Origin: a virus
IMG/VR virus record: IMGVR_UViG_3300027746_001082
DNA: 12,955 nucleotides
Direction: 5' to 3' (one strand)
This document shows, one piece after another, positions 1 through 12,955 of the stretch. The notes under the pieces are model-generated. The model did not search any database and had not been told where the DNA came from. It saw only the letters and a list, made by a program, of their open reading frames with translations. Numbering within the stretch: position 1 is the first letter of the stretch; each line of letters opens with the position of its first letter. The translations under genes and the position numbers were made by a program.

Positions 1-127
1 GGACAAATGGTATCGGCCACTTTATTTAATATGGTATGTACAAATGATAATTTAATAGATAGTGCTACTTTTTATTATCAATTATATGTAAATGTAAATT
101 TTCAAGTAGCTGACGGAGTATTATCAA
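1..127. repeat. Terminal overlap copy A, identical to 12829-12955; marks circular closure
   Basis: Base-for-base identity over 127 nt with the last 127 nt of the window, in direct orientation at the two ends. A 127-nt overlap is what a k-mer assembler leaves on a circular contig. Confidence 0.9.
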
Positions 128-225
128 TGAGTGGTGCAGATTATATTGCCTATTCAACCAGCACTACTGCAAATGATTATGCTTACCAATGGGGTGCAAC
201 ACAATTAAATCTTACCTTAGTTTAA
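1..225 (+). CDS. 3' part of an 86-aa hypothetical beta-rich protein that spans the circle junction
   Basis: The frame is open from base 1 (gga caa ATG...) to TAA at 223-225. In the duplicate copy the same frame starts at ATG 12793. The joined ORF reads MKQILPVSIWYNGQMVSATLF...LNLTLV. It has no TM segment and lies directly after the fibre gene. Confidence 0.6.
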   Translation, partial: GQMVSATLFNMVCTNDNLIDSATFYYQLYVNVNFQVADGVLSMSGADYIAYSTSTTANDYAYQWGATQLNLTLV

Positions 226-240
226 TCAAATACAATATAT

Positions 241-405
241 ATGGAAAACCAAAAAGCCCTAGAATTAATTAAAGCCTTAATTGATGAATCAATTAAAAAA
301 GGTGTATTACTAAACATTGATACGGCAGTACAAGTCGCAGAAGCGTTTAATACAATCGTTAAGGCAATTCAAAACAATGCTTCCAATGAGGCACAAATTG
401 ATTAA
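241..405 (+). CDS. Hypothetical 54-aa helical protein, below the ORF-track length cutoff
   Basis: ATG 241 to TAA 403-405 gives MENQKALELIKALIDESIKKGVLLNIDTAVQVAEAFNTIVKAIQNNASNEAQID. It fills the gap between neighbouring genes, and its stop is 1 nt before the next ATG (407). Confidence 0.45.
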   Translation: MENQKALELIKALIDESIKKGVLLNIDTAVQVAEAFNTIVKAIQNNASNEAQID

Positions 406-406
406 G

Positions 407-583
407 ATGACTGATAAAAATGGTATAAGTGGTGCTATTGCTAGTGTAGGTACTTACATATTAAGTATTAACCAAATTAACGCCTATATGTCGTTATTTT
501 TGGGCTTACTCTCTGGTATTAGTTCCATTTATACCATTTTACATATTTACAAAATAAACAAAAAGAAAAATGAAAAATCCTAA
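407..583 (+). CDS. Holin-like small membrane protein (58 aa, two hydrophobic segments, basic C-terminus)
   Basis: ATG at 407 inside track ORF 317..583 gives MTDKNGISGAIASVGTYILSI...MSLFLGLLSGISSIYTILHIYKINKKKNEKS. The longer 317 start uses a non-ATG codon and overlaps ORF 241..405. The gene lies just upstream of the lysozyme gene. Confidence 0.55.
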   Translation: MTDKNGISGAIASVGTYILSINQINAYMSLFLGLLSGISSIYTILHIYKINKKKNEKS

Positions 584-731
584 AACAACTATATTCGGTT
601 TACTTGCTGCTATAAGTGGCTACTTTGCAACTGCTGGTACTGGTAAAGTACAAGTTATTGCTCAAGCAATAGCTGGCATATCTACATTTTTATTGGGTGG
701 CGTAGCAGCTGATTCTAAAAAAGATAATTAA
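570..731 (+). CDS. Second holin/antiholin-like small membrane protein (53 aa, two TM)
   Basis: ATG 570 to TAA 729-731 gives MKNPKTTIFGLLAAISGYFATAGTGKVQVIAQAIAGISTFLLGGVAADSKKDN. It overlaps the previous ORF by 14 nt and ends 8 nt before the lysozyme start. It is not in the ORF track because it is short. Confidence 0.5.
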   Translation: MKNPKTTIFGLLAAISGYFATAGTGKVQVIAQAIAGISTFLLGGVAADSKKDN

Positions 732-739
732 TTGACTAT

Positions 740-1285
740 ATGGCTAGTAAGAAAAAAGTATTAGCTACTTTAGTTATAACTACAATAGTATTATATATGT
801 TACGAAAACGCATAGCTACGGTTTTAAATAATACGCCTTTTGCTTTAGTTAGCGATAAGCTATTTAATGTAATATCAAGTTTAGAGGGATTTATAGCAAT
901 ACCTATTTGGGACTATATGCAATATTCAGTTGGTTATGGATCTGGTTATAATTGGGATTTAAAAAGACCGGTTATAAAAACTGATGTAATTGATAAAGAA
1001 ACGGCTAAAAAGTGGCTTTTATTAGAAGCCCAAGACAAATATGACTTTGTTATGAGTAAGGTTAGGGTACCAGTTACCGATAACCAGTTATTAGCTATGG
1101 CTAGTTTTACCTATAATGAAGGGGAAAATGCTTTTGCTAATAGTACATTACTTAGATTGCTTAATGAGGGGGTTAGTAAGGACAAAGTAGCCCTACAATT
1201 TGATAGGTGGGTATATGCTGGGGGAAAGGTTAGTAGTGGCTTAAAAAAGCGTAGAATGGCTGAAAAACGACTATTTTTATCATAG
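740..1285 (+). CDS. Endolysin: GH24 phage lysozyme (PF00959-like) with an N-terminal membrane anchor or SAR-like segment
   Basis: The catalytic region SSLEGFIAIPIWDYMQYSVGYGSG fits the E-x8-D...(T/S)-x-GYG pattern. Later motifs LLAMASFTYNEGENAFANSTLLRLLN and FDRWVYAGGKVSSGLKKRRMAEKRLF are typical of lambda/T4-type lysozymes. The N-terminus has a hydrophobic stretch, VLATLVITTIVLYML. Confidence 0.9.
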   Translation: MASKKKVLATLVITTIVLYMLRKRIATVLNNTPFALVSDKLFNVISSLEGFIAIPIWDYMQYSVGYGSGYNWDLKRPVIKTDVIDKETAKKWLLLEAQDKYDFVMSKVRVPVTDNQLLAMASFTYNEGENAFANSTLLRLLNEGVSKDKVALQFDRWVYAGGKVSSGLKKRRMAEKRLFLS

Positions 1286-1312
1286 GTTGGGGTTTTTGCA
1301 TAGTATAAAGGT

Positions 1313-1339
1313 AAAGGGGTATTTCTATACCCCTTTTTT
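1313..1339 (+). terminator. Intrinsic terminator ending the long plus-strand operon, at the convergence point with minus-strand genes
   Basis: The sequence is aaaGGGGTATttctATACCCCtttttt: a 7-bp G/C-containing stem extendable by AAA/TTT, a 4-nt loop and a T6 run. The stop codon of minus ORF 1325..1516 lies in the loop. The minus direction has only UUU after the stem. Confidence 0.7.
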
Positions 1340-1516
1340 AATGTATATACGTTCTACATATAATCTAGTATCCTTTTCGTACAAGTTAAAATACTCGGCA
1401 TTTAGGGATTTAGCAAAAGTTATAAAATTATTAATACTAGAAATATTATGATATTTACGAACTGGCTGGATATTATCCTTGAAAAAAACAATAGCACTAT
1501 ACAACTTTTTAGCCAT
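1325..1516 (-). CDS. Hypothetical protein (63 aa)
   Basis: Track ORF with an ATG start, placed 1 nt after the stop of the upstream gene, so packing is tight. I recognise no motif. Confidence 0.55.
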   Translation of the reverse strand: MAKKLYSAIVFFKDNIQPVRKYHNISSINNFITFAKSLNAEYFNLYEKDTRLYVERIYIKKGV

Positions 1517-1517
1517 T

Positions 1518-1754
1518 TTAAAGGGGTTTATCGTTTATAGCGAAGTATCTAACATTATCTTGGGTAACTGCTCTAATTTTGCGTTTAACTACCAGCGGTG
1601 CAACTGCTCGTAATATAGTAAATCTTTGCCATTTAGTAATCTCTTGCAAATCCTTTAAACTTACTACTTTGCGTTCTAATATAATAAAATATATTTTTGT
1701 TTTATTTGTCATAGTGGTATATTTGTGATGAAAAGTGTTAGAGTAGGCAATCAT
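1518..1754 (-). CDS. Small winged-helix/HTH-like DNA-binding candidate (78 aa; alternative ATG at 1712 gives 64 aa)
   Basis: The segment VVSLKDLQEITKWQRFTILRAVAPLVVKRKIRAV looks like a helix-turn-helix recognition helix plus wing. ATG 1754 lies 5 nt after the repeated CTGACTATAAAAT motif, mirroring the arrangement at 4087. Confidence 0.45.
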   Translation of the reverse strand: MIAYSNTFHHKYTTMTNKTKIYFIILERKVVSLKDLQEITKWQRFTILRAVAPLVVKRKIRAVTQDNVRYFAINDKPL

Positions 1755-1759
1755 TGTCT

Positions 1760-1772
1760 ATTTTATAGTCAG
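1760..1772 (-). promoter_or_regulatory. Repeated motif site 1: CTGACTATAAAAT on the minus strand
   Basis: The plus strand reads attttatagtcag. The core TTATAGTCAG is identical to 3002-3011 and 4099-4108. The site lies 5 nt upstream of ATG 1754. A second CTGACT sits 11 nt further upstream on the minus strand. Confidence 0.5.
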
Positions 1773-1809
1773 CGAGAAGTCAGCCTAAAAACTGGCTTCT
1801 CGTTTTTTT
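1773..1809 (+). terminator. Plus-strand-oriented intrinsic terminator inside the minus-strand gene block
   Basis: CGAGAAGTCAG (1773-1783) pairs with CTGGCTTCTCG (1792-1802), giving 11 bp with one G-U pair, an 8-nt loop and T7 at 1803-1809. On the minus strand the stem is followed by cugacuauaaaa, which is not a U tract. Confidence 0.55.
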
Positions 1810-1827
1810 ATGACTACAAACTAACCA

Positions 1828-1956
1828 TTAGTATTTTTTTATTTTTGAGTTATTAATTATATGCTCTATAAAAGCTATTAACATTATCCATAAAGTACAT
1901 ACAATAGCCATAGGAAGTATAAAAAATATCAAATAAAGTCTTTTTAGAATTGTCAT
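1828..1956 (-). CDS. Possible 42-aa single-TM peptide
   Basis: ATG 1956 to TAA 1828-1830 gives MTILKRLYLIFFILPMAIVCTLWIMLIAFIEHIINNSKIKKY. It fills the gap between the helicase gene and the hairpin, but it is short and could be a chance ORF. Confidence 0.25.
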   Translation of the reverse strand: MTILKRLYLIFFILPMAIVCTLWIMLIAFIEHIINNSKIKKY

Positions 1957-2026
1957 ATATCCCTATTTATTAGTTTATAAAATAATTTTTTAGCTAGTTC
2001 CCAAATTAGTATTGTTATAATTATCT

Positions 2027-2887
2027 TCATAATATCTTATAATTGTTTTTACTATCTTTTACAATATAGTTTTTACTTATCCATAATTTAATTAAGTTTT
2101 TAGCAAAGGCTTTACTGGTAGCAGTCCTTTCAATAATTTCGCTGGATATATCATTGTAAGGCATTGGCATAGTAACTATTTGATGTAACAAGCGTTTACT
2201 TTCAATTTCATCAATATCCGTAGCTTTTTTACCAGTATTTTTTTGCTTTTCAGTTTCTATCTGCTGGAATATCCCATTAAAATTCATTAATGTAATTGGT
2301 TCAAAATCCGAATCACTACGCATAAACCTACTAGATAGTACATAAGTATTTTTATCTTTATCTTTTGTAATATCTAAAGTAGATTGAGCAAAACGATCGC
2401 TGGCACTACCAATATGTCCAGTAGTGGCTAAATTGCTTTTTGACTGATGCAAAACTGATATTAATAAAATATTAAATTGCTTTGTTATCTTTTTTAACCA
2501 GCTAGTCAATAAACTACTTTCTTTTTCATCATTGTAATTAACTAGCAAATCTAAAAGTCCGTCAACAATCAATATAGAGCAATCTAGGTTTAATTCTAAA
2601 TAGCGTTCTATCATTTGTTTAATGGCGTTGCTGGAATCCTCACGTACTTGGAAAGCGTCAAAATAAGGTGGCAGATCGTTAATCTCAGCAAATCCTTTAA
2701 TTTTTTTAATAGTCCTATAAAAGTCGTAATCGCTACTTTCAGTATCAATTAAACATACTTTAGCCCTACTGGGGGGAGTATGCAATTTCATTGTGAAAAT
2801 ATCATAGGTATTAAATACGCTACTTATCATAGCACAAATAAAGGTTGATTTACCAGCTTTTGTTACGGCAACCCAGAAAATATACAA
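2027..2887 (-). CDS. RecA-fold P-loop NTPase, AAA_25/RepA (RSF1010)-type or DnaB-C-like replicative helicase, with a C-terminal winged-helix-like tail
   Basis: Walker A is AVTKAGKST (aa 7-15). It is followed by KVCLIDTESSDYDFYRTI, Walker B CSILIVDGLLDL and the sensor-like VLHQSKSNLATTGHIGSASDRF. The track start is TTG and the P-loop sits almost at the N-terminus, so the 5' end is doubtful (see 2863..3021). Confidence 0.8.
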   Translation of the reverse strand: MYIFWVAVTKAGKSTFICAMISSVFNTYDIFTMKLHTPPSRAKVCLIDTESSDYDFYRTIKKIKGFAEINDLPPYFDAFQVREDSSNAIKQMIERYLELNLDCSILIVDGLLDLLVNYNDEKESSLLTSWLKKITKQFNILLISVLHQSKSNLATTGHIGSASDRFAQSTLDITKDKDKNTYVLSSRFMRSDSDFEPITLMNFNGIFQQIETEKQKNTGKKATDIDEIESKRLLHQIVTMPMPYNDISSEIIERTATSKAFAKNLIKLWISKNYIVKDSKNNYKIL

Positions 2888-3021
2888 AAGTTTTGGAGTG
2901 ATCCTATATGTTTACCTTGAATAGTAAATATAATATTTTCCTTGCTTGGTATATATGCTGGGTTGTATTTGCGTTTTTTTAGTAATTCATCAATGTTTAT
3001 CTTATAGTCAGTATTTTCCAC
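2863..3021 (-). CDS. 52-codon open frame abutting the helicase gene; likely its displaced N-terminal segment
   Basis: GTG 3021 to TAA 2863-2865 gives (M)ENTDYKINIDELLKKRKYNPAYIPSKENIIFTIQGKHIGSLQNFCIFSGLP. It overlaps the helicase frame by 25 nt and is offset by one base. The overlap contains the A4 and T4 runs ccaaaacttttgtatattttctgg. Confidence 0.4.
   Translation of the reverse strand: MENTDYKINIDELLKKRKYNPAYIPSKENIIFTIQGKHIGSLQNFCIFSGLP
3002..3013 (-). promoter_or_regulatory. Repeated motif site 2: TACTGACTATAA on the minus strand
   Basis: The plus strand reads ttatagtcagta, the same 12-mer as 4099-4110. It lies at the 5' end of the helicase region. Confidence 0.45.
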
Positions 3022-3087
3022 ATTTAAAAATTTTCAAGTAAAGCACAAACTAAAAAAGCAATTAATACAAAAAGTACTGCATTTCCA

Positions 3088-3420
3088 TTAATGGTTGTAA
3101 ATAACCATTTCATCATTTTTATCATTTGTTAAGGTTTTAGTTTTTTCTTCAATAAGATTTAAAAAGTCAATAGCATCATCAATAGCAATATCCATAATAA
3201 ATAAATTTATTGCTCTATATTCTTTTTTACTATCGTCTTGATTATATTCTTCTTGATTCATAATTGCTATTTCATTTTCATTACTATCAATTTTATAACT
3301 TTTATATAATTCAAGAGCAAAATGCTCTAATTTAGATAGTCCAGGAATAGGCACTACTAAGCGTTTAAAATTGTCTTGTAATGGTACTACTGGATAAGCT
3401 GGCTGAGTTAAATTATTCAT
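3088..3420 (-). CDS. Hypothetical acidic protein (110 aa)
   Basis: Track ORF with an ATG start that overlaps the upstream gene stop by 8 nt. Acidic stretches include NQEEYNQDD and IDDAIDFLNLIEE. I recognise no motif. Confidence 0.6.
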   Translation of the reverse strand: MNNLTQPAYPVVPLQDNFKRLVVPIPGLSKLEHFALELYKSYKIDSNENEIAIMNQEEYNQDDSKKEYRAINLFIMDIAIDDAIDFLNLIEEKTKTLTNDKNDEMVIYNH

Positions 3421-3607: not shown

Positions 3608-3654
3608 TTTTTTAAATTTTGAGTTTTTGCTAATAATAAAAAGTAGTTCATAAT

Positions 3655-3801: not shown

Positions 3802-3802
3802 T

Positions 3803-4087: not shown

Positions 4088-4095
4088 TTTTTTAA

Positions 4096-4110
4096 ATTTT
4101 ATAGTCAGTA
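4096..4110 (-). promoter_or_regulatory. Repeated motif site 3: TACTGACTATAAAAT on the minus strand; candidate early promoter or operator
   Basis: The plus strand reads attttatagtcagta. It shares 13 nt with site 1 and 12 nt with site 2, and lies 8 nt upstream of ATG 4087 at the head of the minus-strand block. It contains a TATAAAAT element. Confidence 0.5.
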
Positions 4111-4215
4111 AAATAGAATAACGATATAAAATAAAGGATATTATATCAAACTACCAAAATATTTAATATAATATCTATTTTTAAAGGTCAAAAGTGTTAA
4201 AATAATAGTGTTTTA

Positions 4216-4319
4216 GGGGTATTTCTGTTTTATTAGATTTCTTGTTGCGAGCTTATGCTCGGCAAAAGCAAATCTAATAAAAATAAAACAAGAAAAAGAC
4301 ATTTACCCGATTTTTTTTT
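4216..4319 (+). other. Long imperfect palindrome/hairpin ending in T9: candidate origin element or structured small RNA
   Basis: Exact 13-nt arms TTTTATTAGATTT (4228-4240) and AAATCTAATAAAA (4270-4282) flank an apical CGAGC-ttat-GCTCG at 4248-4261. Outer pairs are GTTTTA/TAAAAC and GGGTA (4217-4221)/TACCC (4304-4308). A T9 run follows at 4311-4319. Confidence 0.5.
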
Positions 4320-4443
4320 CCACAAGCCTAAAAATTTAACATTTCTAGGCATTTTTTACTCAATTTTGAGTAGTTTATAAACAAAAACAATAAAATTTTG
4401 TTATTTTAAATTATTGCCTTAATTTTATGGTAATTAGATTTTT

Positions 4444-4869
4444 ATGACTAAAAAGAATTGGTGGTTACTTCCAGCAACAATTATTGGGTATTTAGTTTAT
4501 AAAAAATATGTATTAGCAAAAAGCACTTCAGTTTTTTTTAAGTCTATTGATTTTAGTAGTATGAGTTTATTATATCCTACTATTAATATTATAGTACAAG
4601 TTAATAACCCTACTGATATTACGGCAACTATTCAAAATATTAAAGGAGATCTATATTTAAACAATGTATATGTAGGTAATGTAATAGGTATAACGCCTAC
4701 AATTTTACAAACTGGTAGCTCTACTTTAAGAATACCAGTAACTTTATCATATACTGGTGTTGCATCTTTAATAAAAGGATTTAGTACTGGTGGAATAAAA
4801 TTAAAATTTAATGGTAGTATATTAGTAGATTTTATTACTTTACCTTTAGATTTTGAGTATAATATATGA
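4444..4869 (+). CDS. Membrane-anchored LEA_2/WHy-like (LEA14-type, PF03168-like) beta-sandwich protein
   Basis: The N-terminal TM is WWLLPATIIGYLVY. It is followed by INIIVQVNNPTDITATIQNIKGDLYLNNVYVGNVIGITPTILQTGSSTLRIPVTL, which fits the v.NPN.f.i.i..i.y.l.lng..ig.g....i.a.g...l.vpv pattern of LEA type 2 proteins. Confidence 0.6.
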   Translation: MTKKNWWLLPATIIGYLVYKKYVLAKSTSVFFKSIDFSSMSLLYPTINIIVQVNNPTDITATIQNIKGDLYLNNVYVGNVIGITPTILQTGSSTLRIPVTLSYTGVASLIKGFSTGGIKLKFNGSILVDFITLPLDFEYNI

Positions 4870-5840
4870 TTAGTAAAAATATGGTGCTACAAAAACTAGC
4901 ACCTTTTAATAATTTTAAAAAAGTATTAATAGAGGATCAAAATACTGGTGATATTATACAAGGCATTTTAGATAATCATAATAACTACGAAAAAGAGTAT
5001 GATAAGATTAGCGAAATGTTTATTGATGATAATGAAGTAGAAACGGCAAAAAATGTTTTTGAATTTTTAAAACAGAATGTACCTTATTATGTTGAGCCTA
5101 TTGAAAAACAAACTTTAAGAAGTCCTAGTGCTATTATAAGTATAAAAGAGGGTGCAGACTGCAAAAGTTACGCTAGCTTTATTAACGGCATTATGAGTTC
5201 TTTAAATAGAAAAGGAATATTTAAAGTACCACTAGCTTACCGATTTGCTAGTTATAGATATGATACAAGAGAACCCCAGCACGTTTTTAGTGTATTATAT
5301 CCTTCTACTAAAAATGAGGTTTGGGTAGATCCAGTATTAAACAAATTTGATCAAAGAAAGGAACCAGTATTTATAAAAGATAAAAAAATTAAAATGGCAC
5401 TAATAGCTATGTCTGGAACGGCAAATCAATCAACGGCAACTTTACAAGATATGCAAAATTACCGCGATAAATTAGTAGGTTTAAAAAATAAATATTTGAA
5501 TAGTGGTGTAATTACGCCAGGTAGTCAAGAGGAAAATCAATATATTATGGCAATAGATAAAGTAACAAAATGTATTCAAATGGCAAGTATTAACGGAGTT
5601 CCAAATATTAGTGGAATGTTTGACGGAGAAAGTAGTAGTAGTGGTGGTATTGATTGGAATAATATATTTGGAAAACTAATTGATACTGGTGCAAATTTAA
5701 TAAATCGTAATCAGTCTAGTAGTGGTGGTGGTTTTATTCCACCAATTCCAAAAGATGAAACTAAAGGAATTAACACTAATACATTGTTATTAATAGGTGC
5801 TGGTGGTTTAGTATTATATTTAATACTTAGAAAAAAATAA
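4866..5840 (+). CDS. Transglutaminase-like cysteine peptidase-fold protein with a C-terminal TM anchor
   Basis: EGADC(99)KSYASFINGIM...PQH(139)VFSVLY...EVWVD(155)PVL reproduces the Cys-His-Asp order and spacing of the transglutaminase-like core. Ser/Gly linkers follow, then the terminal LLLIGAGGLVLYLILRKK. The ATGA start overlaps the previous stop. Confidence 0.6.
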   Translation: MISKNMVLQKLAPFNNFKKVLIEDQNTGDIIQGILDNHNNYEKEYDKISEMFIDDNEVETAKNVFEFLKQNVPYYVEPIEKQTLRSPSAIISIKEGADCKSYASFINGIMSSLNRKGIFKVPLAYRFASYRYDTREPQHVFSVLYPSTKNEVWVDPVLNKFDQRKEPVFIKDKKIKMALIAMSGTANQSTATLQDMQNYRDKLVGLKNKYLNSGVITPGSQEENQYIMAIDKVTKCIQMASINGVPNISGMFDGESSSSGGIDWNNIFGKLIDTGANLINRNQSSSGGGFIPPIPKDETKGINTNTLLLIGAGGLVLYLILRKK

Positions 5841-6439
5841 TGGCATATTATACTAATTATATAGGTTATAAACAAATAGGTTTTGGTGAAGCCACATTGG
5901 CAACTGGTGGTGCTGCTTTTCCAATCACGGCAGTGATAGATGGTGCAATAGCATTATTGCCTATATTAATACCTTGGATTGGTAATGCATTTAAACACCC
6001 AGCAAGAGACGCAAATAAATTAATAGATGGAATTAAAACACAATTAATTAATAGTGATCCAAGACAAAGATTAGCATTAGTATTAGCTACTGCAAATAGA
6101 ATTAGTCCAGCTGCTAGAGATGTATCTGCTGAAAAACTTTTTTTGTGGTATAAAAATACATATAATCAAGATTATAAGACTTTATCATTAGAAGATAAAG
6201 AATATTATAATAAGTTTTTACAAAATGCAATACAAACGCAAGCAGACGGAAACAATTTTTGGGCAAATTCTCGTAGAGCAATGTTTACAAATTCGGAATT
6301 AAATTATAATGCAAATCCAGTACAAACAATTACTAATACTGCAAGTAACATAATTACTAATTTAACACAAAGTCCAAGTAGTTTAATTTTATATACTGGT
6401 ATTGGACTAGGTTTATATTTAATATTAAAAAATAAATAA
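5840..6439 (+). CDS. Membrane protein (199 aa) with an N-proximal hydrophobic helix and a C-terminal anchor
   Basis: The helices are AAFPITAVIDGAIALLPILIPWIG and the C-terminal LILYTGIGLGLYLILKNK. There are TAATG start/stop overlaps at both ends. Confidence 0.65.
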   Translation: MAYYTNYIGYKQIGFGEATLATGGAAFPITAVIDGAIALLPILIPWIGNAFKHPARDANKLIDGIKTQLINSDPRQRLALVLATANRISPAARDVSAEKLFLWYKNTYNQDYKTLSLEDKEYYNKFLQNAIQTQADGNNFWANSRRAMFTNSELNYNANPVQTITNTASNIITNLTQSPSSLILYTGIGLGLYLILKNK

Positions 6440-6768
6440 TGAAAAAGGGAAATTTAATTTTTATTGTAGGTGGTTTAGGTTTACTTTATTACTATTATAT
6501 GCGTAATAAAAAAACTGCAATTTTACCACCAGCAACAATAATAAAGCCAAGCACTACAAATATAGCTAAGCCTACTTATCCAGAGGGGTTATTTGAATTA
6601 GATGTAGTGGCAAATGGAGTAGAAACTGCTCAATTATATCAAGGTCAATTAAGACCTTTAACGGCTGCTTATGTAGATCGTTATTTACCTAATAGCTGGG
6701 CAACTACTAAAATAATACCAGATATCGTATATAGAAGTATCCCTAGAGGTGCAGTTTTAGATATTTAA
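6439..6768 (+). CDS. Small membrane protein (109 aa) with an N-terminal TM
   Basis: The N-terminus is MKKGNLIFIVGGLGLLYYYYMRNKK, followed by a soluble domain. A TAATG overlap links it to the upstream gene. Confidence 0.65.
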   Translation: MKKGNLIFIVGGLGLLYYYYMRNKKTAILPPATIIKPSTTNIAKPTYPEGLFELDVVANGVETAQLYQGQLRPLTAAYVDRYLPNSWATTKIIPDIVYRSIPRGAVLDI

Positions 6769-6778: not shown

Positions 6779-7363
6779 ATGACACAAGCACAAAAAACTG
6801 CGAAAGCAAAATTTAAGCAAGCTATTGCTTATAGACAAAAGACTGGCGTTTCACTTAAAGAAGCGTTTGCACATATTTACGGAAAAAAGAAAGTAGGTGC
6901 AGTTAAGAAAAAATCGGCACCTAAAAAGAAAGCTGCTAAAAAAGTAGTTAAAAAGAAATATGGGTTAAACACTAAATTAGATAAGTTATATAGTGCAAAA
7001 AAACCAGGAAAGCGTGTAAGTAAAAGTGGTAAAACATATTACGAAAATAGAGAAAATCGTAGCGACAAAGGTAAAATGTATGGAGTAGTAAAAGCAAAAC
7101 CTACAATTATATCTTTAGCTAAAAAAATTGCAAGACAAACTGATTTAAATGAACATAATTTAGCAATATTATCATTAGCAAAATTTTTAAAAGCAAAAAA
7201 AGCAATAGAATTAATGAATAATGTAATTAAAATGCACGATAATTTTGGATATATGCCAAAAAATTTAATTGACATTAGAGATGAAATTTATGATACATTA
7301 ATGATGTTATTAAAATCAAAATACGGAGATATAGATTATAAAACAATACAAAATTCTTTTTAA
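6779..7363 (+). CDS. Lysine-rich histone H1-like DNA-binding candidate (194 aa)
   Basis: The basic tracts are GKKKVGAVKKKSAPKKKAAKKVVKKKYG and SAKKPGKRVSKSGKTYYENRENRSDKGK, followed by a helical C-terminal half. There is no TM segment. Confidence 0.55.
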   Translation: MTQAQKTAKAKFKQAIAYRQKTGVSLKEAFAHIYGKKKVGAVKKKSAPKKKAAKKVVKKKYGLNTKLDKLYSAKKPGKRVSKSGKTYYENRENRSDKGKMYGVVKAKPTIISLAKKIARQTDLNEHNLAILSLAKFLKAKKAIELMNNVIKMHDNFGYMPKNLIDIRDEIYDTLMMLLKSKYGDIDYKTIQNSF

Positions 7364-7404
7364 ATAAAAATTTTCTCATAAACAATAATTAAAAATCAAA
7401 CAAA

Positions 7405-7830
7405 ATGGCAAGAAGAAAAAGATCAACTAAAAAAAGTAGCTACCGCAGACGCAGAATGTCTGGTGTAGGTGCTATGGGTAGTCAAATTACTGGTGCATTA
7501 TATACAATCGCTGGTGCCGTTGCTGCTGGGGCAGTAACAAAATTTTTACCCGCAACTATGAACGATAAGCTAAAAGCAGCAGTTCCAGTAGTAGTAGGTA
7601 TTATGTTACCTAAATATTTAAAAGGCAATATCGGTCAAGGAATTGGTGCTGGTATGGTTGCAACTGGTGGGCTTAAATTAGTACAATCATTTGGAATCCT
7701 TAATGGAATCGGTGGTGGTTATGCTGGTTATCAAGTACCGCAAGTATCTGGATCATATAATAATGCTGGTTTAGTAGATACTAGCTATATGACACCTTCT
7801 ATTGCTGGTATGGACGAGGCGAATTGTTAA
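7405..7830 (+). CDS. Membrane protein with an arginine-rich N-terminus (141 aa)
   Basis: MARRKRSTKKSSYRRRRMSG is followed by Gly/Ala-rich hydrophobic helices: ITGALYTIAGAVAAGAV, AAVPVVVGIML and GIGAGMVATGGL. The leader is long and A-rich. Confidence 0.6.
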   Translation: MARRKRSTKKSSYRRRRMSGVGAMGSQITGALYTIAGAVAAGAVTKFLPATMNDKLKAAVPVVVGIMLPKYLKGNIGQGIGAGMVATGGLKLVQSFGILNGIGGGYAGYQVPQVSGSYNNAGLVDTSYMTPSIAGMDEANC

Positions 7831-7885
7831 TCTAACACATTTCACCTTTAATATAAATTTAATAAAAAATAAAAATTAAAAAACA

Positions 7886-8602: not shown

Positions 8603-8629
8603 AGCGGTCAGTAACTACCGCTATTTTTT
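8603..8629 (+). terminator. Weak intrinsic terminator or attenuator after the capsid candidate
   Basis: AGCGGT (8603-8608) pairs with ACCGCT (8617-8622), with an 8-nt loop, then aTTTTTT (8624-8629). It lies in the largest intergenic gap of the plus operon, about 104 nt. Confidence 0.4.
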
Positions 8630-8649
8630 AAATTATTAAAAATAAAGAT

Positions 8650-9057: not shown

Positions 9058-9069
9058 TATAGTTTTATT

Positions 9070-9792
9070 ATGGCAGTTCAAAAAGCAATGACTACTGGAA
9101 CTAACGGAGTTATGGACTGGTTTGACAGAAATGCAACCAGTCCGTATTACTCGGTTTGTGAAATAATTAGTCCTACAAAAAAAGAGTTACTTTTTTCTTG
9201 TAATGAAGATAGCGTAGATAACGCTAGGCGAATATTAGAAGAAAATATATCTGCGTTTGAGCAAAACGGAGTTAATACTTTATATGCTTTAATCTTGCAC
9301 CCTAAAAAAGACAAGACTGGATATATTACTATGAATACGCCAAGCCACGCTATGCTAAAATTTAGACCAGCAGAATTAGAGCAACCAATCTACGGAGTAG
9401 GTGCCTATACTGGTGGTGGAAGCAATCGTTATGAAATGGAAAAAATAATGGAAAAGCTAAATTTATTGGAAAATAAACTAGCAATGGCAGAAGAAGAAGA
9501 AGATATTGTAGATACGCCAGTAAATCCATTAAACGCAATGCTTCATAATATGGCTGCAAATCCGCAAGTACAAGAGGCTTTAATTAGTGGTTTATTAGGT
9601 GTAGTAGGTGGTTTTTTAAATAATGGTAAACAAATGCAAGGCGTAGCTGGTATTAATGTAACTGCTGAAATTACAGAAGAATCATTGCAAATACTAGATA
9701 GCTTAATGAAAAAAGGTGTTAGTTTAGATCATCTAAGAAAATTAGATGCTATGCCTAATACTAAATTACAAAGTTTATTAATAATGTTATAA
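9070..9792 (+). CDS. Hypothetical structural/assembly protein (240 aa) with a central acidic coiled-coil-like stretch and one hydrophobic segment
   Basis: The coiled-coil-like stretch is YEMEKIMEKLNLLENKLAMAEEEEDIV and the hydrophobic segment is ALISGLLGVVGGFL. I recognise no family. Confidence 0.6.
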   Translation: MAVQKAMTTGTNGVMDWFDRNATSPYYSVCEIISPTKKELLFSCNEDSVDNARRILEENISAFEQNGVNTLYALILHPKKDKTGYITMNTPSHAMLKFRPAELEQPIYGVGAYTGGGSNRYEMEKIMEKLNLLENKLAMAEEEEDIVDTPVNPLNAMLHNMAANPQVQEALISGLLGVVGGFLNNGKQMQGVAGINVTAEITEESLQILDSLMKKGVSLDHLRKLDAMPNTKLQSLLIML

Positions 9793-10277
9793 TGGCAATA
9801 GATAAGCAAACACAAAAACTTTTATTATATGCTGCAATCGGTGGCGGTGCGTATTTTTTAATATTACGCCCATTACTTATTAAATTAGGTATTTTAAAGA
9901 GTCCTTTAGAATTACAGCAAGAGCAAAGCCAAAAAGAAAATATTGATAGCTATGTTAATAGTTCTTTGAAAATACAAACGCCAACTAAATCAAAAGGCGA
10001 ATGGCAAATTATTGCAGATCAAATATATAATGATCTAAAATTTAGTGGAATTGCTGACAATAAAAGTGATGCTGGTTCTCAAGTAGCAAGAGTTCAAAAT
10101 GATGCAGATGTCGCATTATTAATACAAATTTTTGGAATGAGGCAAGAAAGTTTTTTTGGAATCAATACTGGTGGATTGCAAAATTTACCACAATTTATTA
10201 TTGGTAATTTAAGCAAAAGTGATATAGCTAAGATTAACGATAATTATGCTAGAAAAAAAATAAAATTTAGGTTTTAA
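9792..10277 (+). CDS. Membrane protein (161 aa) with an N-terminal TM
   Basis: The TM is LLLYAAIGGGAYFLILRPLLI. A TAATG overlap links it to the upstream gene. Confidence 0.6.
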   Translation: MAIDKQTQKLLLYAAIGGGAYFLILRPLLIKLGILKSPLELQQEQSQKENIDSYVNSSLKIQTPTKSKGEWQIIADQIYNDLKFSGIADNKSDAGSQVARVQNDADVALLIQIFGMRQESFFGINTGGLQNLPQFIIGNLSKSDIAKINDNYARKKIKFRF

Positions 10278-10291
10278 CTAAAAAAAGAATT

Positions 10292-10579
10292 ATGAAAAAT
10301 AAAAGTACAATGTTATTAGTAGGTATTGGAATAGCTTATTTATTATACCGATTATATGCAAAAAAATCAATGGCACCAGTTAATACTGCAAGTGCTAAAC
10401 CAAATATATTAGATACAAACGATCATAATGTTGTAACTGCTCAATTACCTAATCAATTTTTAGTAGATTCTATTAATACGGCTGAACTTGTTGATATGCC
10501 ATCAATTTATCAAACTTATTATGGAAATACTAATGTAAGAATAAATGGTGCTATGTCAAAAGTACCTTCTACTTGCTAA
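10292..10579 (+). CDS. Small membrane protein (95 aa) with an N-terminal TM
   Basis: The N-terminus is MKNKSTMLLVGIGIAYLLYRLYAKK, followed by a soluble tail. Confidence 0.6.
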   Translation: MKNKSTMLLVGIGIAYLLYRLYAKKSMAPVNTASAKPNILDTNDHNVVTAQLPNQFLVDSINTAELVDMPSIYQTYYGNTNVRINGAMSKVPSTC

Positions 10580-10606
10580 CATTTTTAACCTTTAAAAAAT
10601 ATTAAT

Positions 10607-10879
10607 ATGAGTAATTTTACTTTAAAAGCTGGATATATTGAATATGATGTAAACTTTATTACTTATGATGTAAACGGATTTGTAACAACTAATTGTAATA
10701 GTATTACTTTTATTAATTACGGATCTAATCAAGTAACTATTGAAAGCGTTGTATTGCAACAAAATCAAAGTTTAGCAATAGATGGAAATGCTGGCGAAAT
10801 AATGCACAAACAATTTTTAGCAACCTTTAGTGGTGCTGGTACTAATAACTTAGTAACAATAAAGAAAAATTATTTATAA
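10607..10879 (+). CDS. Small beta-rich protein (90 aa); possible vertex or fibre-adaptor component
   Basis: The sequence is all strand-like: ITFINYGSNQVTIESVVL, SLAIDGNAGE and LVTIKKNYL. Its stop is 1 nt before the fibre gene ATG. The functional call rests on position only. Confidence 0.5.
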   Translation: MSNFTLKAGYIEYDVNFITYDVNGFVTTNCNSITFINYGSNQVTIESVVLQQNQSLAIDGNAGEIMHKQFLATFSGAGTNNLVTIKKNYL

Positions 10880-10880
10880 T

Positions 10881-12791
10881 ATGAGTATGATAGGCGTAGA
10901 TTATGGAGTACTGAATCAAAAAGGCAGTCCGTCTTGGTTTAGTGATATATATGCCAATATACCTACGGCTGGTTATAAAGGTCGTATGTTTATATCTATT
11001 GATACATACGCATTTTATAGAGATACTGGTACGGGCTGGGATTTAATTGGTGGCCCTGGTACTGGAACTTTAACTGGTAGTGGTGTAAGCGGGCAAGTAT
11101 CTTTTTTTAATGGTACCCAAACAATTACTGGAAACAATAACTTATTTTGGGATAATACTAATAACAGATTAGGAATTAATACAGCAACGCCAGGACAAGC
11201 CTTAGATATACATTCAACTGCAAATACTTTAGTACAATTAAATAATACGACTACTGGAGATAGTGTTATTGCTTTTCAAAATCAAAATGTAACTAAGTGG
11301 AAAATTGGAAATGTTTACAATGCTGGTGCTAATAGTTTTAGTATAACTAATCCAATTTTGTCAAGTACGCCATTTACAATTAGTAGTGGTGATGCAATTA
11401 CTTTAAATTCAAATGTTACTACGACTGGTGCACAATTTGTTCAAAATGGGTTATATTTAACAAATGCAAATGCTGGTGCTTTAGCATTTTACACAAATAT
11501 TTGGGGGAGGAATGATGGAATAAATTTTGCTTTAAGAAATTTAACTGGAGGTGCAGGTTTTATTTTTCAAAGTGCAGCTAGTTATGATTATACTTTTCCA
11601 GCAAGTGCTGGTACTTTAGCACTAACAAGCAATTTAAGTAGTTATCTTCCTTTAACTGGTGGAACTTTAACTGGTGCATTAGTTATTAACCCAACTAATA
11701 CTCTTACTATTGGTTTAGATGTAGCTAGTAATACAACAAGATTTAGAAGTGATAATTTAGAGGGTAATAAAAGGCAATTAGAAATTGTAATGGGTAGTGG
11801 TACTTTAGTACAATTAACTGCAAAAGGTTATCTTGCTAATTATGGTACCGATATGGCTTTTTATACTGCCACTACTGGTGGAACAAATGCTAGTCCAGGA
11901 ATATATATAACTGGTACTAATAATAGAGTAGGTATTAAAACTGGAACGCCTAGTTATGATTTAGATGTAACTGGAACTTTTGGTACAAGTGGCTCGGCTA
12001 CTTTTGGTAGTGATGTATTTACATATAATAATGGAGGTATTTTTTTTAGTGGTGGTGGTACTTATACAAGTGGAATATTACAAAACGCAAATGGATTAGC
12101 TTTACAATCAGGAACAGCAGTTAGAATGGTTATAGGCTCAACAGGTAATGTAGGTATTGGTACATCTTCACCAAATTCATTATTAACTGTTAGAGGAACT
12201 CCTAATACTGATTATGGTTCTATTAATGCTTTTGATACTAGAACGGCAGCCATAAATCAAGGGCCATCTATTGCTTTTGGAGGATTTGTTACAGGAACTT
12301 CATCAGGTGCTACATTTGGTTTAATTGGAGCAAAAAAAGAAAATGCTACTGCTGGTGATGAAGCAGGTTACATAACTTTTAATCCGAATAATGGTGGTGG
12401 AGTTTATACTGAAAGAATGCGTATTAGCTCTGCTGGAGTAGTTACAATAACCAATTTAGGAACAGGAACAGTAACTTCAACAAGTGGTGTATTATCTGTT
12501 GTTTCAGATATGAATTTAAAAATTGAAGATGGATATATAGAAAACGCATTAGAAAAGGTAATAAATTTAAAGCCAAGATATTTCTTATGGAAAGATGAAA
12601 GTGGCTTACCTACTAATTTAAGACAATTAGGATTTTATGCTCAAGAAGTTAATGCAGCATTAGGAGAAGAAGTAGCAAATACACCAAGTGAAAATAATAA
12701 TTGGGGAATTCATGATAGAGGTATAATAGCAATGTTAACAAAAGCAATACAAGAATTAAACGAAAAATTAGTAAAAAATAATATAAATTAA
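10881..12791 (+). CDS. Receptor-binding fibre/spike with a C-terminal peptidase S74 intramolecular chaperone (autoproteolytic) domain
   Basis: The C-terminus SDMNLKIEDGYIENALEKVINLKPRYFLWKDESG...RQLGFYAQEVNAALGEEV...GIHDRGIIAMLTKAIQELNEKL matches the endosialidase-chaperone pattern (SD.r.K...l..l.pv.f.......GfiAQEv....p..v......v.y..l.a.l..AiqeL). Upstream fibre hallmarks are LPLTGGTLTGAL and three N.(L/V)GI.T..P...L.(I/V) repeats. Confidence 0.85.
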   Translation: MSMIGVDYGVLNQKGSPSWFSDIYANIPTAGYKGRMFISIDTYAFYRDTGTGWDLIGGPGTGTLTGSGVSGQVSFFNGTQTITGNNNLFWDNTNNRLGINTATPGQALDIHSTANTLVQLNNTTTGDSVIAFQNQNVTKWKIGNVYNAGANSFSITNPILSSTPFTISSGDAITLNSNVTTTGAQFVQNGLYLTNANAGALAFYTNIWGRNDGINFALRNLTGGAGFIFQSAASYDYTFPASAGTLALTSNLSSYLPLTGGTLTGALVINPTNTLTIGLDVASNTTRFRSDNLEGNKRQLEIVMGSGTLVQLTAKGYLANYGTDMAFYTATTGGTNASPGIYITGTNNRVGIKTGTPSYDLDVTGTFGTSGSATFGSDVFTYNNGGIFFSGGGTYTSGILQNANGLALQSGTAVRMVIGSTGNVGIGTSSPNSLLTVRGTPNTDYGSINAFDTRTAAINQGPSIAFGGFVTGTSSGATFGLIGAKKENATAGDEAGYITFNPNNGGGVYTERMRISSAGVVTITNLGTGTVTSTSGVLSVVSDMNLKIEDGYIENALEKVINLKPRYFLWKDESGLPTNLRQLGFYAQEVNAALGEEVANTPSENNNWGIHDRGIIAMLTKAIQELNEKLVKNNIN

Positions 12792-12792
12792 T

Positions 12793-12955
12793 ATGAAACA
12801 AATATTACCAGTATCAATATGGTACAACGGACAAATGGTATCGGCCACTTTATTTAATATGGTATGTACAAATGATAATTTAATAGATAGTGCTACTTTT
12901 TATTATCAATTATATGTAAATGTAAATTTTCAAGTAGCTGACGGAGTATTATCAA
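12793..12955 (+). CDS. 5' part of the junction-spanning 86-aa ORF (continues at base 1)
   Basis: ATG 12793 lies 1 nt after the fibre stop. The frame stays open to the window end and is in phase with 1..225 through the 127-nt duplicate. Confidence 0.6.
   Translation, partial: MKQILPVSIWYNGQMVSATLFNMVCTNDNLIDSATFYYQLYVNVNFQVADGVLS
12829..12955. repeat. Terminal overlap copy B, identical to 1-127
   Basis: Same 127-nt string as bases 1-127. The unit genome length is therefore 12,828 bp. Confidence 0.9.

Follow-up and report, generated by a model that had tools for sequence, protein, structure and literature searches.

The window analysed here (the whole 12,955-nt stretch of IMG/VR record IMGVR_UViG_3300027746_001082) carries the genome of what is probably a lytic, uncultivated, tail-less phage with an internal membrane, two single-jelly-roll proteins and no recognisable packaging motor, and it belongs to a large freshwater phage family that is undescribed so far. 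The initial annotation had proposed a new tail-less, membrane-containing type, two terms that are read from gene content; every testable part of that interpretation held and we regard it as supported. The features of the genome are listed in Table 1.

Nucleotides 1-127 match nucleotides 12829-12955 exactly and close the window into a circle of 12,828 bp (30% G+C), as had been noted earlier, and 50 relatives close by end overlaps in the same way, with unit lengths of 11.0-13.6 kb. Because the overlap lengths (127, 123, 141, 99, and 55 among the first 26 of the 50 relatives listed) resemble assembler k-mer sizes, the 127-nt repeat is read as an assembler overlap and not as a physical terminal repeat. 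Three longer contigs (36,986, 20,270, and 16,316 bp) were examined and consist of head-to-tail copies with identical gene order and no host flanks. Given the exact overlap, the closing relatives and these tandem contigs, we concluded that the 12.8-kb circular genome is complete and not a fragment of a larger one. The ORF previously reported to read across the junction does so; the family of its 86-aa product occurs in 45 of the 51 complete relatives, always directly after the fibre gene, has no Pfam or PHROG match, and is a candidate vertex or fibre accessory. The length range held by the 51 genomes suggests a container of fixed size.

Table 1. Features of the window and the evidence for each (aa, amino acids; TM, transmembrane).
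Feature	Coordinates	Strand	Evidence
Assembly overlap	1..127	.	Identical to 12829-12955; closes 12,828-bp circle
Two small overlapping TM ORFs (317-583 and 570-731)	317..731	+	Hydrophobic segments; just upstream of endolysin
GH24 endolysin with N-terminal signal-anchor (SAR-like)	740..1285	+	Phage_lysozyme E 8e-26; phrog_7 E 2e-29
G+C-rich hairpin, then T run	1313..1336	.	Terminator scan; between convergent transcription-unit ends
Two small basic ORFs, 63 and 78 aa	1325..1754	-	End of replication/early module
RecA-fold AAA_25 (DnaB/RepA-like, SF4-type) ATPase	2027..3021	-	Profile matches; sole P-loop
Early/replication ORFs, 110 (acidic), 89, 48, and 94 aa	3088..4087	-	Synteny
Divergent intergenic region, 356 nt	4088..4443	.	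Hairpin-type inverted repeats 4130-4182, 4228-4282
141-aa protein, N-terminal anchor and LEA_2 (WHy-type beta-sandwich)	4444..4869	+	LEA_2 E 1.2e-7
324-aa transglutaminase/papain-fold cysteine peptidase, C-terminal anchor	4866..5840	+	DUF553 E 1.3e-4
199-aa membrane protein, two hydrophobic segments	5840..6439	+	Hydrophobicity scan
109-aa protein, N-terminal anchor	6439..6768	+	Paralogue of ORF 10292-10579 (cluster together)
Lysine-rich 194-aa protein	6779..7363	+	Composition: 48 K+R vs 15 D+E
141-aa protein, arginine-rich N-terminus (MARRKRSTKKSSYRRRR), then Gly/Ala-rich hydrophobic segments	7405..7830	+	Sequence
Candidate major capsid protein, 219 aa	7886..8545	+	Conservation, covariation
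Terminator-like hairpin	8603..8622	+	Terminator scan; between two jelly-roll genes, after 219-aa gene
Single-jelly-roll protein, 135 aa	8650..9057	+	AF2 model, Foldseek
240-aa core protein, acidic coiled-coil-like middle, short hydrophobic segment	9070..9792	+	In 51/51 genomes
Two membrane-anchored proteins, 161 and 95 aa	9792..10579	+	N-terminal hydrophobic segments
90-aa beta-rich protein	10607..10879	+	Directly upstream of fibre gene
636-aa receptor-binding fibre	10881..12791	+	Peptidase_S74 E 4e-8; PHROG tail-fibre families
86-aa beta-rich ORF	12793..12955, on across junction to 225	+	Junction ORF

The family comprises ∼700 clusters at 50% identity (219-aa protein); seven gene families occur in all 51 complete genomes and a further seven in at least 44. 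The genome is part of a very large, coherent metagenomic family and no singleton. Many of the contigs originate from IMG/VR. The family as such matched nothing in INPHARED, PLSDB, PDB sequences, Pfam, or PHROGs, and the earlier remark that the genome is unlike any nameable family stands, no similarity to any classified phage having been found. Terminase, portal, HK97 capsid, tail tube, and tape measure genes are absent from the window and the 51 complete relatives, as are FtsK/HerA ATPase, HUH Rep, polymerase, and integrase. For no window ORF did Pfam, PHROGs, or NCBIfam give a terminase, portal, HK97, tail, or packaging-ATPase match, and no relaxase was found in profile searches. Apart from those of polymerase, integrase, and relaxase, these absences had been listed in the initial annotation, which was also right that no ORF besides the fibre exceeds 324 aa (the length of the longest) and that a GH24 endolysin, an S74-domain fibre, and a replicative helicase are present, all three domains being matched. 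The small size of the circle, its plasmid-type helicase, and the lack of packaging genes that can be recognised would also suit a plasmid or phage satellite that has no particle of its own and uses a helper's capsid; we consider this highly improbable, since a conserved late module (fibre, jelly rolls, and lysis) takes up about two thirds of the genome, neither integrase nor relaxase was detected, PLSDB holds no match, and IMG/VR is the source of many contigs.

The shell would be built from the 219-aa protein, the best conserved in the genome (83-98% identity across the top 120 hits). Its covariation forms one nested antiparallel ladder, with B-I and I-D pairings too: by two independent covariation methods 29 of the top 110 pairs fall on one antidiagonal (3.3 expected), and twelve further covarying pairs lie on the B-I ladder (1.0 expected); no covariation signal appeared for the H-E pairing that would be expected. 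At the low effective depth of this alignment (Neff ∼140), the pattern fits one jelly roll at about residues 74-215, preceded by an N-terminal extension of ∼70 aa. A double jelly roll does not fit this pattern. AF2 returned no usable model of it (pLDDT 35). For the 135-aa protein, AF2 predicted eight strands (pLDDT 79, pTM 0.73); the top Foldseek matches in the PDB, all weak (best E 5e-3, TM 0.48), were mostly viral jelly-roll coat proteins including that of Sulfolobus polyhedral virus 1 (SPV1, 6oj0), and in BFVD two unnamed viral proteins were matched at TM 0.73-0.76 (E 2e-8). As modelled, the protein is an eight-stranded jelly roll, and it is a candidate penton or second capsid protein (co-capsomer). 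These two small single-jelly-roll proteins, unrecognised by the initial annotation, are the likely capsid genes, and the hairpin between them is a possible attenuator setting the ratio of their products.

Single-jelly-roll membrane viruses (Portogloboviridae, Helvetiavirae) are the closest architectural analogues of a particle that is known here from its genes, whereas PM2, PRD1, and FLiP are double-jelly-roll phages and differ from the arrangement of two single jelly rolls. The likeness to PM2, tectiviruses, and FLiP drawn earlier is replaced by this nearer one. We weighed an ssDNA membrane phage of the FLiP/PhiCjT23 kind, with the strand packaged while displaced in replication, which would account for the missing packaging ATPase. 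FLiP and PhiCjT23 share Flavobacterium hosts, a freshwater origin, lipid, and the lack of a packaging ATPase; their capsid proteins are very small jelly rolls (no double jelly roll smaller than the 239-aa one of PhiCjT23 is known); and an arginine-rich N-terminus, present in the ORF 7405 protein, is common among ssDNA virus capsid or DNA-binding proteins. This reading is nonetheless unlikely: a rolling-circle HUH Rep occurs in none of the 51 genomes, the SF4 helicase is the only replication enzyme, both strands of the window carry genes, the FLiP capsid protein showed no similarity, the 219-aa covariation gives a single jelly roll, the family is plentiful in ordinary metagenome assemblies, and the 12.8-kb circle is longer than the genome of FLiP (9.2 kb) and of any other icosahedral ssDNA phage known. 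The genome is most likely dsDNA; third-position skew was uninformative. Several relatives encode C5 DNA methyltransferases (E 8e-48), which would serve a replicative form too and so fit either dsDNA or ssDNA.

Beneath the shell would lie an internal lipid membrane in which at least six anchor proteins of the virus sit, among them the transglutaminase-fold cysteine peptidase. Hydrophobic anchors are found family-wide in ORFs 4866, 5840, 7405, 9792, and 10292 and in the endolysin, and at least six structural-module families have conserved anchors by a scan that is crude and flags beta strands too, in line with the earlier description of transmembrane-rich structural ORFs. ORF 4444 opens the structural module and its family is in all 51 genomes, with a hydrophobic segment in about two thirds of homologues; the scan missed the window copy. 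Relatives of the 324-aa protein match Transglut_core at 6e-9, residues C99, H139, and D155 are kept in at least 95% of 50 homologues, and a TM segment lies at 307-321; it is a candidate virion-associated cell-wall or maturation enzyme. The 199-aa gene is fused to it in some relatives, and the C-terminal anchors of the two proteins are duplicates (repeat D3). Within the family shared by the 109-aa protein and ORF 10292, 94% of members have a hydrophobic segment; the anchor of window ORF 6439 was missed by the scan and seen by eye only. Two proteins of the module are strongly basic: the 194-aa protein (51/51 genomes, middle part variable), a candidate DNA-condensing protein, and that of ORF 7405 (44/51 genomes, hydrophobic segment in 95%), a candidate membrane-DNA link. 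The 240-aa core protein has no profile match.

The 636-aa protein would form the vertex fibres, assisted by the beta-rich 90- and 86-aa proteins encoded on either side of its gene. The fibre has a conserved N-terminus, a variable middle, and a C-terminal S74 intramolecular chaperone domain (aa 542-598), and ranges from 227 to 971 aa in the family; the 90-aa protein, a candidate vertex adaptor with no profile match, is in 47 of the 51 genomes in fixed synteny. Hydrophobic residues 7-21 of the endolysin are kept in 47/47 homologues. For the two ORFs upstream, called holin-like before, the TM segments and position were borne out; the label draws on size, position, and TM only, and we list them as candidate holins. 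A pleomorphic virus with an envelope, like the plasmaviruses, or an element carried in vesicles, in which the jelly rolls serve as spike or matrix and no icosahedral shell exists, would suit a 12.8-kb circle of 30% G+C (Acholeplasma phage L2 is similar in size and composition) that encodes numerous membrane proteins and lacks a packaging ATPase. It is very unlikely in view of two adjoining, extremely conserved jelly-roll proteins, a lysis cassette including an endolysin, the S74 chaperone domain on the fibre, and a length so tightly held across 51 genomes.

Replication would be plasmid-like, relying on the DnaB/RepA-like SF4 ATPase as the sole DNA-metabolism enzyme of the phage, on a handful of small proteins, and on enzymes of the host. 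The ATPase family is in all 51 genomes; 15 of 15 diverse homologues matched AAA_25 (best E 1.7e-9), PHROG matches were to primase/helicase and DnaB-like helicase (phrog_239, phrog_19), and the profile hit FlaH (1e-3) and, weakly, T7 gp4 among PDB sequences. The matches are thus to AAA_25 and DnaB-like helicase families, not to FtsK/HerA. The replicative helicase of the initial annotation stood as to family but not as one intact ORF: the window copy is split exactly at the Walker A/P-loop into ORFs of 52 aa (2863-3021) and 286 aa (2027-2887). Six-frame translation of the whole circle contains one genuine Walker A motif, in this protein. The same particle architecture could use the ATPase (also) as packaging motor, a vertex hexamer like the SF4-like P4 NTPase of cystoviruses; the P4 packaging NTPase of phi6 is an SF4-type RecA-fold hexamer. 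The ATPase is the genome's only P-loop protein, occurs in every one of the 51 genomes, and is encoded just upstream of the structural module in co-oriented relatives. We give this motor role little credence, as the profile matches are to families of replicative helicases from plasmids and phages (AAA_25, phrog_239, and phrog_19), many members have a C-terminal extension, missing from shorter ones, that by eye looks like a DNA-binding winged helix, and the gene moves with the small early genes, the whole inverting as a module in relatives. The 110- and 94-aa families (48/51 and 49/51 genomes) always adjoin the ATPase, and the 63-aa family is in 35/51; neither these nor the 78-, 89-, and 48-aa ORFs have a domain match. 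The divergent intergenic region is a candidate for promoters and origin, and the hairpin at 1313-1336 is a likely terminator.

Among 942 genes, a strict Shine-Dalgarno motif was found upstream of 0.3%; leaders are A-rich instead. Two "Bacteroidetes" MAG bins contain such contigs. Both observations point, indirectly, to hosts that are probably freshwater Bacteroidota.

For the preferred internal-membrane phage, the sole argument for packaging by co-assembly is that a motor is missing and basic proteins are encoded. Two of these would most likely condense the DNA, the lysine-rich one of 194 aa and, through its arginine-rich N-terminus, the 141-aa membrane protein, and the condensed DNA would be enclosed while membrane and shell assemble around it, an arrangement proposed by likeness to SPV1, whose DNA is condensed by proteins and enclosed during membrane and shell assembly (PMC8459092). 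Release would then proceed through the small TM proteins and the signal-anchored GH24 endolysin.

The window starts and ends with the same 127 nt, which gives a 12,828-bp unit with 30% G+C, and an 86-aa ORF spans the junction; the complete circle with an ORF across its ends, as described in the initial annotation, was thus confirmed. Exact end overlaps were also found in 50 relatives, with units of 11.0-13.6 kb. In the first 26 relatives (median unit ~12.6 kb) the overlap lengths resemble assembler k-mer sizes (127, 123, 141, 99, 55 and so on), and the 127-nt overlap is a product of assembly rather than a terminal repeat of the DNA itself. Three long contigs of related metagenomic loci, L001 (36,986 bp), L174 (20,270 bp) and L176 (16,316 bp), consist of head-to-tail units with unchanged gene order, and host flanks sought in these contigs were absent. 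We concluded from the end overlaps in 50 relatives and the multi-unit contigs lacking host flanks that the genome is complete; a fragment of a larger genome is ruled out by the same observations. The window genome assembles as a circle with no sign of integration. The 1.3 to ~2.9 tandem unit copies in L001, L174 and L176 could be assembly wrap-around of a circle or true concatemers, e.g., replication intermediates.

Profile scans of all window ORFs (Pfam, PHROGs, NCBIfam) detected no terminase, portal, HK97 capsid, tail tube, tape measure or baseplate gene, and no FtsK/HerA or A32-type ATPase, HUH Rep, primase, polymerase or integrase; the hallmark genes are likewise missing from the gene complement of 51 complete family genomes. 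A six-frame scan of the circle found one genuine Walker A motif, within the AAA_25 ATPase. The empty scans and this sole P-loop of AAA_25 type uphold what had been claimed from the sequence, namely that terminase, portal, HK97 and tail genes, an FtsK/HerA ATPase and an HUH Rep are all lacking. The PHROG 'tail fiber' families were matched by the fibre alone, via its shaft and S74 region. The proposed endolysin, fibre and replicative helicase also agree with the scans (a GH24 lysozyme domain; Peptidase_S74 at the C-terminus of the 636-aa protein; an AAA_25/DnaB-like ATPase on the minus strand), and the longest ORF apart from the fibre is indeed 324 aa. tRNA and Rfam families were not found in the window. 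The features discussed here are collected in the table.

Features of the window. The last column gives the share of family members with a hydrophobic segment; these percentages are indicative only, because the crude scan also flags beta strands (helicase, capsid protein).
Feature	Coordinates	Strand	Reading or detail	Hydrophobic segment
86-aa ORF	12793 -> 225		spans the junction	
Endolysin	740-1285		GH24 lysozyme domain	100%
Early/replication module	1325-4087	minus	94-aa, 110-aa, ATPase, 63-aa genes	
ATPase	2027-3021	minus	AAA_25	
Walker A break	2855-2890	minus	between GLP and KAGKST	
Inverted repeats, hairpin type	4130-4182; 4228-4282		21-nt arms, 81% and 86% complementary	
LEA_2 protein	4444-4869		anchor protein	67%
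324-aa protein	4866-5840		candidate virion enzyme	99% (324/199-aa pair)
199-aa protein	5840-6439			99% (324/199-aa pair)
39-nt direct repeat	5804-5842; 6403-6441		79% identity	
109-aa protein	6439-6768			94% (95/109-aa paralogues)
194-aa protein	6779-7363		Lys-rich	
52-nt direct repeat	7348-7399; 7835-7886		A/T-rich, 73% identity	
141-aa protein	7405-7830		Arg-rich	95%
219-aa protein	7886-8545		candidate major capsid protein	
Hairpin	8603-8622		terminator-like	
135-aa protein	8650-9057		candidate penton/second capsid protein	
240-aa protein	9070-9792			
161-aa and 95-aa proteins	9792-10579			100% (161-aa); 94% (95/109-aa paralogues)
90-aa protein	10607-10879			
Fibre	10881-12791		636 aa, Peptidase_S74	

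The initial annotation had considered this genome by itself; judged by its homologues, it is one of hundreds. The 219-aa protein has more than 1,000 close homologues (83-98% identity in the top 120 hits) on contigs that cluster at 12-13.8 kb and come mostly from freshwater metagenomes (JGI, ENA, Logan). An exhaustive profile search gave ~700 clusters at 50% identity (318 at E <= 1e-10), nearly all of them 215-240 aa in length. IMG/VR holds more than 250 matches to the family. Single distant capsid proteins used as IMG/VR queries found no loci; distant loci were retrieved with an alignment of a distant subgroup, and contigs with a capsid protein 40-50% identical to the scan query are again 11-14 kb. 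BLAST against INPHARED at the DNA or protein level (genome, 219-aa and 135-aa proteins as queries) returned nothing meaningful, so near-identity to a classified phage was not found; PLSDB plasmids gave no match to the 219-aa protein, and a literature search covering Charybdis elements and Tisza et al. found no description of the family.

G+C ranges from 25 to 44% across the 51 complete genomes. Seven families are universal (51/51): the LEA_2 anchor protein, the 324/199-aa pair, the 194-aa, 219-aa, 135-aa and 240-aa proteins, and the ATPase. A further seven are present in at least 44 of 51 (94-aa, 110-aa, 90-aa, 86-aa, fibre, endolysin and Arg-rich 141-aa). Accessory genes encode C5 DNA methyltransferases, other muramidases, an SGNH-like protein and small ORFs. 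Some relatives carry a glucosaminidase-type muramidase replacing or added to the GH24 enzyme. Relative to the late module, the early/replication module runs in the opposite direction in 8 of 51 genomes, the window included (seen by comparison with loci L002, L011, L047 and L089), and in the same direction in the other 43.

The most conserved gene of the window encodes the 219-aa protein and has a terminator-like hairpin downstream. AF2 was unsuccessful on this protein (pLDDT 35 with a shallow alignment, 83-98% identity), and residue covariation was therefore computed from 370 non-redundant homologues (Neff ~140) by mean-field and pseudo-likelihood (Adam) methods, which agree. Twenty-nine of the top 110 pairs fall on a single antidiagonal from 108/201 inwards to a hairpin at 150/157 (3.3 by chance), 12 further pairs link 74-89 with 203-218 (1.0 expected), and 137 and 140 pair with 211. 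The pattern points to the nested B-I, C-H, D-G and E-F pairs plus I-D of one jelly roll (residues ~74-215), with an N-terminal arm of ~70 residues that would touch the last two strands; the expected H-E contacts were absent at this low depth. A double jelly roll is argued against because there is one nested ladder where a double would give two, and because a second barrel would not fit into the N-terminal 73 residues. For comparison, double-jelly-roll capsid proteins are known down to a size of 239 residues (PMC9719478). Profile searches with 109 diverse members of the family matched no PDB sequence, and the Pfam matches were limited to two single-member, chance-level hits, Cucumo_coat (E 0.006) and LCAT (E 0.01). 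By hhalign, the family scored 0.2% probability against the FLiP capsid protein and PM2 P2, and no paralogy was detected among the 219-aa, 135-aa, 90-aa and 86-aa families.

For the adjacent 135-aa protein, AF2 gave a model with eight strands (pLDDT 79, pTM 0.73), which we interpret as a jelly roll. Its best PDB fold matches are mostly viral jelly-roll coat proteins (cucumovirus, SPV1 capsid protein 6oj0, vaccinia D13, luteovirus, bromovirus, PBCV-1), all weak (best E 5e-3, TM 0.48); 6oj0_A ranks third (E 0.03, TM 0.35). Two viral proteins in BFVD matched well, A0A345N0K5 (157 aa, TM 0.76, E 2e-8, 30% identity) and A0A345MR68 (146 aa, TM 0.73, E 4e-6, 18% identity), and the shared fold indicates that distant family relatives are already in GenBank virus records. 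Two neighbouring genes thus encode jelly rolls, one by covariation and the other by AF2, and the initial annotation is amended on this point: candidate capsid genes are present, as single jelly rolls.

Around the candidate capsid genes, the late module encodes anchor proteins, basic proteins and the fibre. The 324-aa protein combines a transglutaminase/papain-fold domain with a C-terminal anchor, and at least 95% of 50 homologues keep C99, H139 and D155; the protein is a putative virion enzyme that may act in entry or maturation. The 39-nt repeat covers the C-terminal anchor and overlapping stop/start of this gene and the next (anchor ends …LYLILRKK and …LYLILKNK), and some relatives have a single fused gene of 424-466 aa in their place. 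The 194-aa protein contains 48 K+R and 15 D+E; its inserted domains differ between genomes (TreK, DUF7222, DUF7447, DnaJ). The 141-aa protein begins with MARRKRSTKKSSYRRRR, followed by Gly/Ala-rich hydrophobic stretches. The 52-nt repeat lies just 5' of the 141-aa and 219-aa genes and may be a common leader or promoter. Variation is greatest in the fibre gene (227-971 aa), as would be expected of a receptor-binding protein.

AAA_25 was matched by 15 of 15 diverse ATPase homologues (best E 1.7e-9), in PHROGs the full-length form hit primase/helicase and DnaB-like helicase families, and the profile found FlaH (E 1e-3) and, weakly, T7 gp4 helicase among PDB sequences. These matches make the ATPase a RecA-fold, SF4-type enzyme, not FtsK/HerA. 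The gene moves together with the small early genes upon module inversion, and in our reading a plasmid-like replicon uses it as replicative helicase and depends on the host for its other needs. The origin is probably located in the 356-nt intergenic stretch from which the early and late modules diverge; this stretch contains both inverted repeats, candidate operator or origin elements.

In the window the ATPase gene is broken exactly inside Walker A. The break is shared by 12 loci (L005-L007, L012, L013, L015, L016, L018, L019, L021, L174 and L176) and confined to the window's own subclade; the gene is whole in 128 other loci. Two different indels share the site: CCG TAA C AAA AGC, a 5-nt insertion (downstream frame -1/+2), and CCC TAA AGC, a 1-nt insertion (downstream frame +1) that resembles a classic +1 slip site beside a stop codon. 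Purifying selection acts on each of the two halves (pN/pS 0.02-0.35 upstream and 0.02-0.06 downstream; pS ~0.5). Programmed recoding and a two-piece enzyme are the candidate explanations.

How the genome enters the virion was considered together with its strandedness. The SF4 ATPase might itself be the packaging motor, an alternative with a parallel in the P4 NTPase, the packaging motor of cystoviruses. The most economical route would be condensation of the DNA on basic proteins and then enclosure by co-assembly, because no motor was found and two core proteins are strongly basic. Such a route is known from SPV1, whose hexon and penton are both single-jelly-roll proteins and which has a nucleoprotein core and an internal membrane (PMC8459092). 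We put co-assembly forward tentatively. A virion holding ssDNA, as in FLiP, is disfavoured by the missing Rep, the genome size (12.8 kb) and the genes on both strands. Third-position skew was uninformative as a compositional test for ssDNA: the strand-specific skew is gene-specific, and in co-oriented genomes the replication genes show the same skew. C5 cytosine DNA methyltransferases (PF00145; E 8e-48, 7e-8) in relatives L085, L114, L159 and L166 (~306-342 aa) and L102 (211 aa) would speak, weakly, for dsDNA. Taken as a whole, a dsDNA genome is likely.

Bacteroidota are the likely hosts, on indirect indications. Scanning 25 nt upstream of 942 genes in all 51 complete genomes, we found Shine-Dalgarno sequences before 0.3% (strict definition) or 6.7% (loose), and A-rich leaders with adenine enrichment at ~-13 to -10, peaking near -12, and further peaks at -5, -3 and -1 before start codons. 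A-rich leaders lacking Shine-Dalgarno sequences are typical of Bacteroidota. Family contigs are present in two GTDB MAGs labelled 'uncultured Bacteroidetes bacterium', and one of these contigs is a whole 12.4-kb genome with end overlap. The Bacteroidetes -7 promoter motif TAnnTTTG was not enriched (21 found, 27 expected).

The genome was also compared with known groups. Membership in Caudoviricetes was rejected, as neither the window nor 51 relatives encode an HK97 capsid, portal or large terminase; tail tube, tape measure and baseplate genes are missing, and apart from the fibre no ORF exceeds 324 aa. For Microviridae (F-type capsid of ~430-500 aa, HUH Rep, 4-9 kb ssDNA) there is no such ORF and no family match, and the genome is 12.8 kb. 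The corticovirus PM2 (circle of ~10 kb) resembles the window phage in its many small membrane proteins, an early module divergent from the late one, and the tail-less virion with internal membrane that is predicted here. In the PM2 annotation, P2 is the major capsid protein, P9 a structural protein and P12 a putative replication initiator; P9 is the packaging ATPase and P12 a rolling-circle initiator. Unlike PM2, the window has no counterpart of the double-jelly-roll P2, of P9 or of P12. Bamfordvirae/Tectiliviricetes (PRD1, PM2, Autolykiviridae) were set aside on the single ladder at 74-215, the lack of a profile match to PM2 P2 or PDB capsids (the structural model being of low confidence, pLDDT 35) and the absence of an FtsK/HerA ATPase, the sole Walker A being AAA_25/DnaB-like.

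Finnlakeviridae and PhiCjT23 infect Flavobacterium in freshwater and are lipid-containing and tail-less, with small circles and no packaging ATPase; their ssDNA of 7.6-9.2 kb encodes an HUH Rep and a double-jelly-roll capsid protein (239-311 aa). The window phage shares the freshwater habitat, a likely Bacteroidota host, very small candidate capsid proteins, a small circle, the lack of a packaging ATPase and, by prediction, the lipid-containing, tail-less design. Its genome, at 12.8 kb, encodes an SF4 helicase but no Rep, and each of its putative capsid proteins has a single jelly roll. Membership was rejected (no HUH Rep hit; hhalign 0.2% against the FLiP capsid protein).

Helvetiavirae lack a tail, have an internal membrane and build their shell from two major capsid proteins, each a single jelly roll, and Simuloviridae have circular dsDNA of 16-19 kb. 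In the Helvetiavirae, P23-77 and IN93 included, the two capsid genes lie side by side, and in its families (Matsushitaviridae P23-77/IN93, Simuloviridae, Sphaerolipoviridae) an FtsK/HerA-type packaging ATPase adjoins them. The window phage would be alike in a tail-less design with a membrane and in its adjacent genes for two single-jelly-roll proteins, candidate vertical-barrel shell proteins; it differs in lacking the FtsK/HerA ATPase, in its smaller genomes and in its hosts. No sequence or profile similarity to the solved Helvetiavirae capsid proteins (VP16/VP17-type) was detected, and no PDB chain matched.

Among the systems compared, most appears to be shared with Portogloboviridae. SPV1 has a circular genome, two different single-jelly-roll proteins forming hexameric capsomers and pentons, an internal membrane, many small membrane and subcapsomer proteins, and DNA as nucleoprotein with a basic protein; its profile names no packaging ATPase (PMC8459092). 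From genes alone, the window phage would match it in the circle, the pair of single-jelly-roll proteins, the anchor proteins, the two basic proteins and the lack of a motor; its endolysin, S74 fibre and SF4 helicase set it apart. SPV1 infects an archaeal hyperthermophile, has 20 kb and T=43, and is reported non-lytic. The likeness is architectural: sequence similarity to SPV1 was not found, the fold match is weak and the SPV1 host is archaeal.

The initial annotation had placed this phage outside any known family, and that stands: Caudoviricetes, Tectiliviricetes/Bamfordvirae, Finnlakeviridae and Microviridae each fail on the defining features tested. Its tail-less, membrane-containing virion agrees with the gene content, but it is from that content that we infer both features. 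We consider it highly probable that the window represents the entire genome of a non-tailed virus whose capsid proteins are jelly rolls; an internal membrane is moderately likely. Given the failed memberships, the lack of Helvetiavirae homology and ATPase, and the architectural likeness to Portogloboviridae, we place it among the tail-less jelly-roll membrane viruses, as at least a new family. A bolder reading, which we hold to be rather unlikely, is that the family is the bacterial counterpart of the archaeal portogloboviruses: a separate single-jelly-roll, internal-membrane lineage with circular dsDNA and no dedicated motor (basic-protein condensation or a re-used SF4 helicase). On this reading it would be abundant among Bacteroidota of freshwater, and its rank would be that of a new family at the least, perhaps of a new order or class not covered by the present schemes for Bamfordvirae and Helvetiavirae.

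Sequence searches miss the capsid proteins of tail-less membrane phages, and these phages are badly under-sampled for that reason. The present family, with ~700 clusters at 50% identity and more than 250 IMG/VR matches, nonetheless escapes searches of Pfam, PHROGs, NCBIfam, INPHARED and PDB sequences. If our reading is true, it would add a common predator of freshwater Bacteroidota and a bacterial virus with a two-single-jelly-roll shell but no FtsK/HerA motor, which to our knowledge is otherwise the second hallmark of jelly-roll membrane viruses. The family would offer a small testable system for how a circular genome enters a membrane-lined shell without a pump, and would bear on the question whether the double-jelly-roll lineage descends from single-jelly-roll shells.
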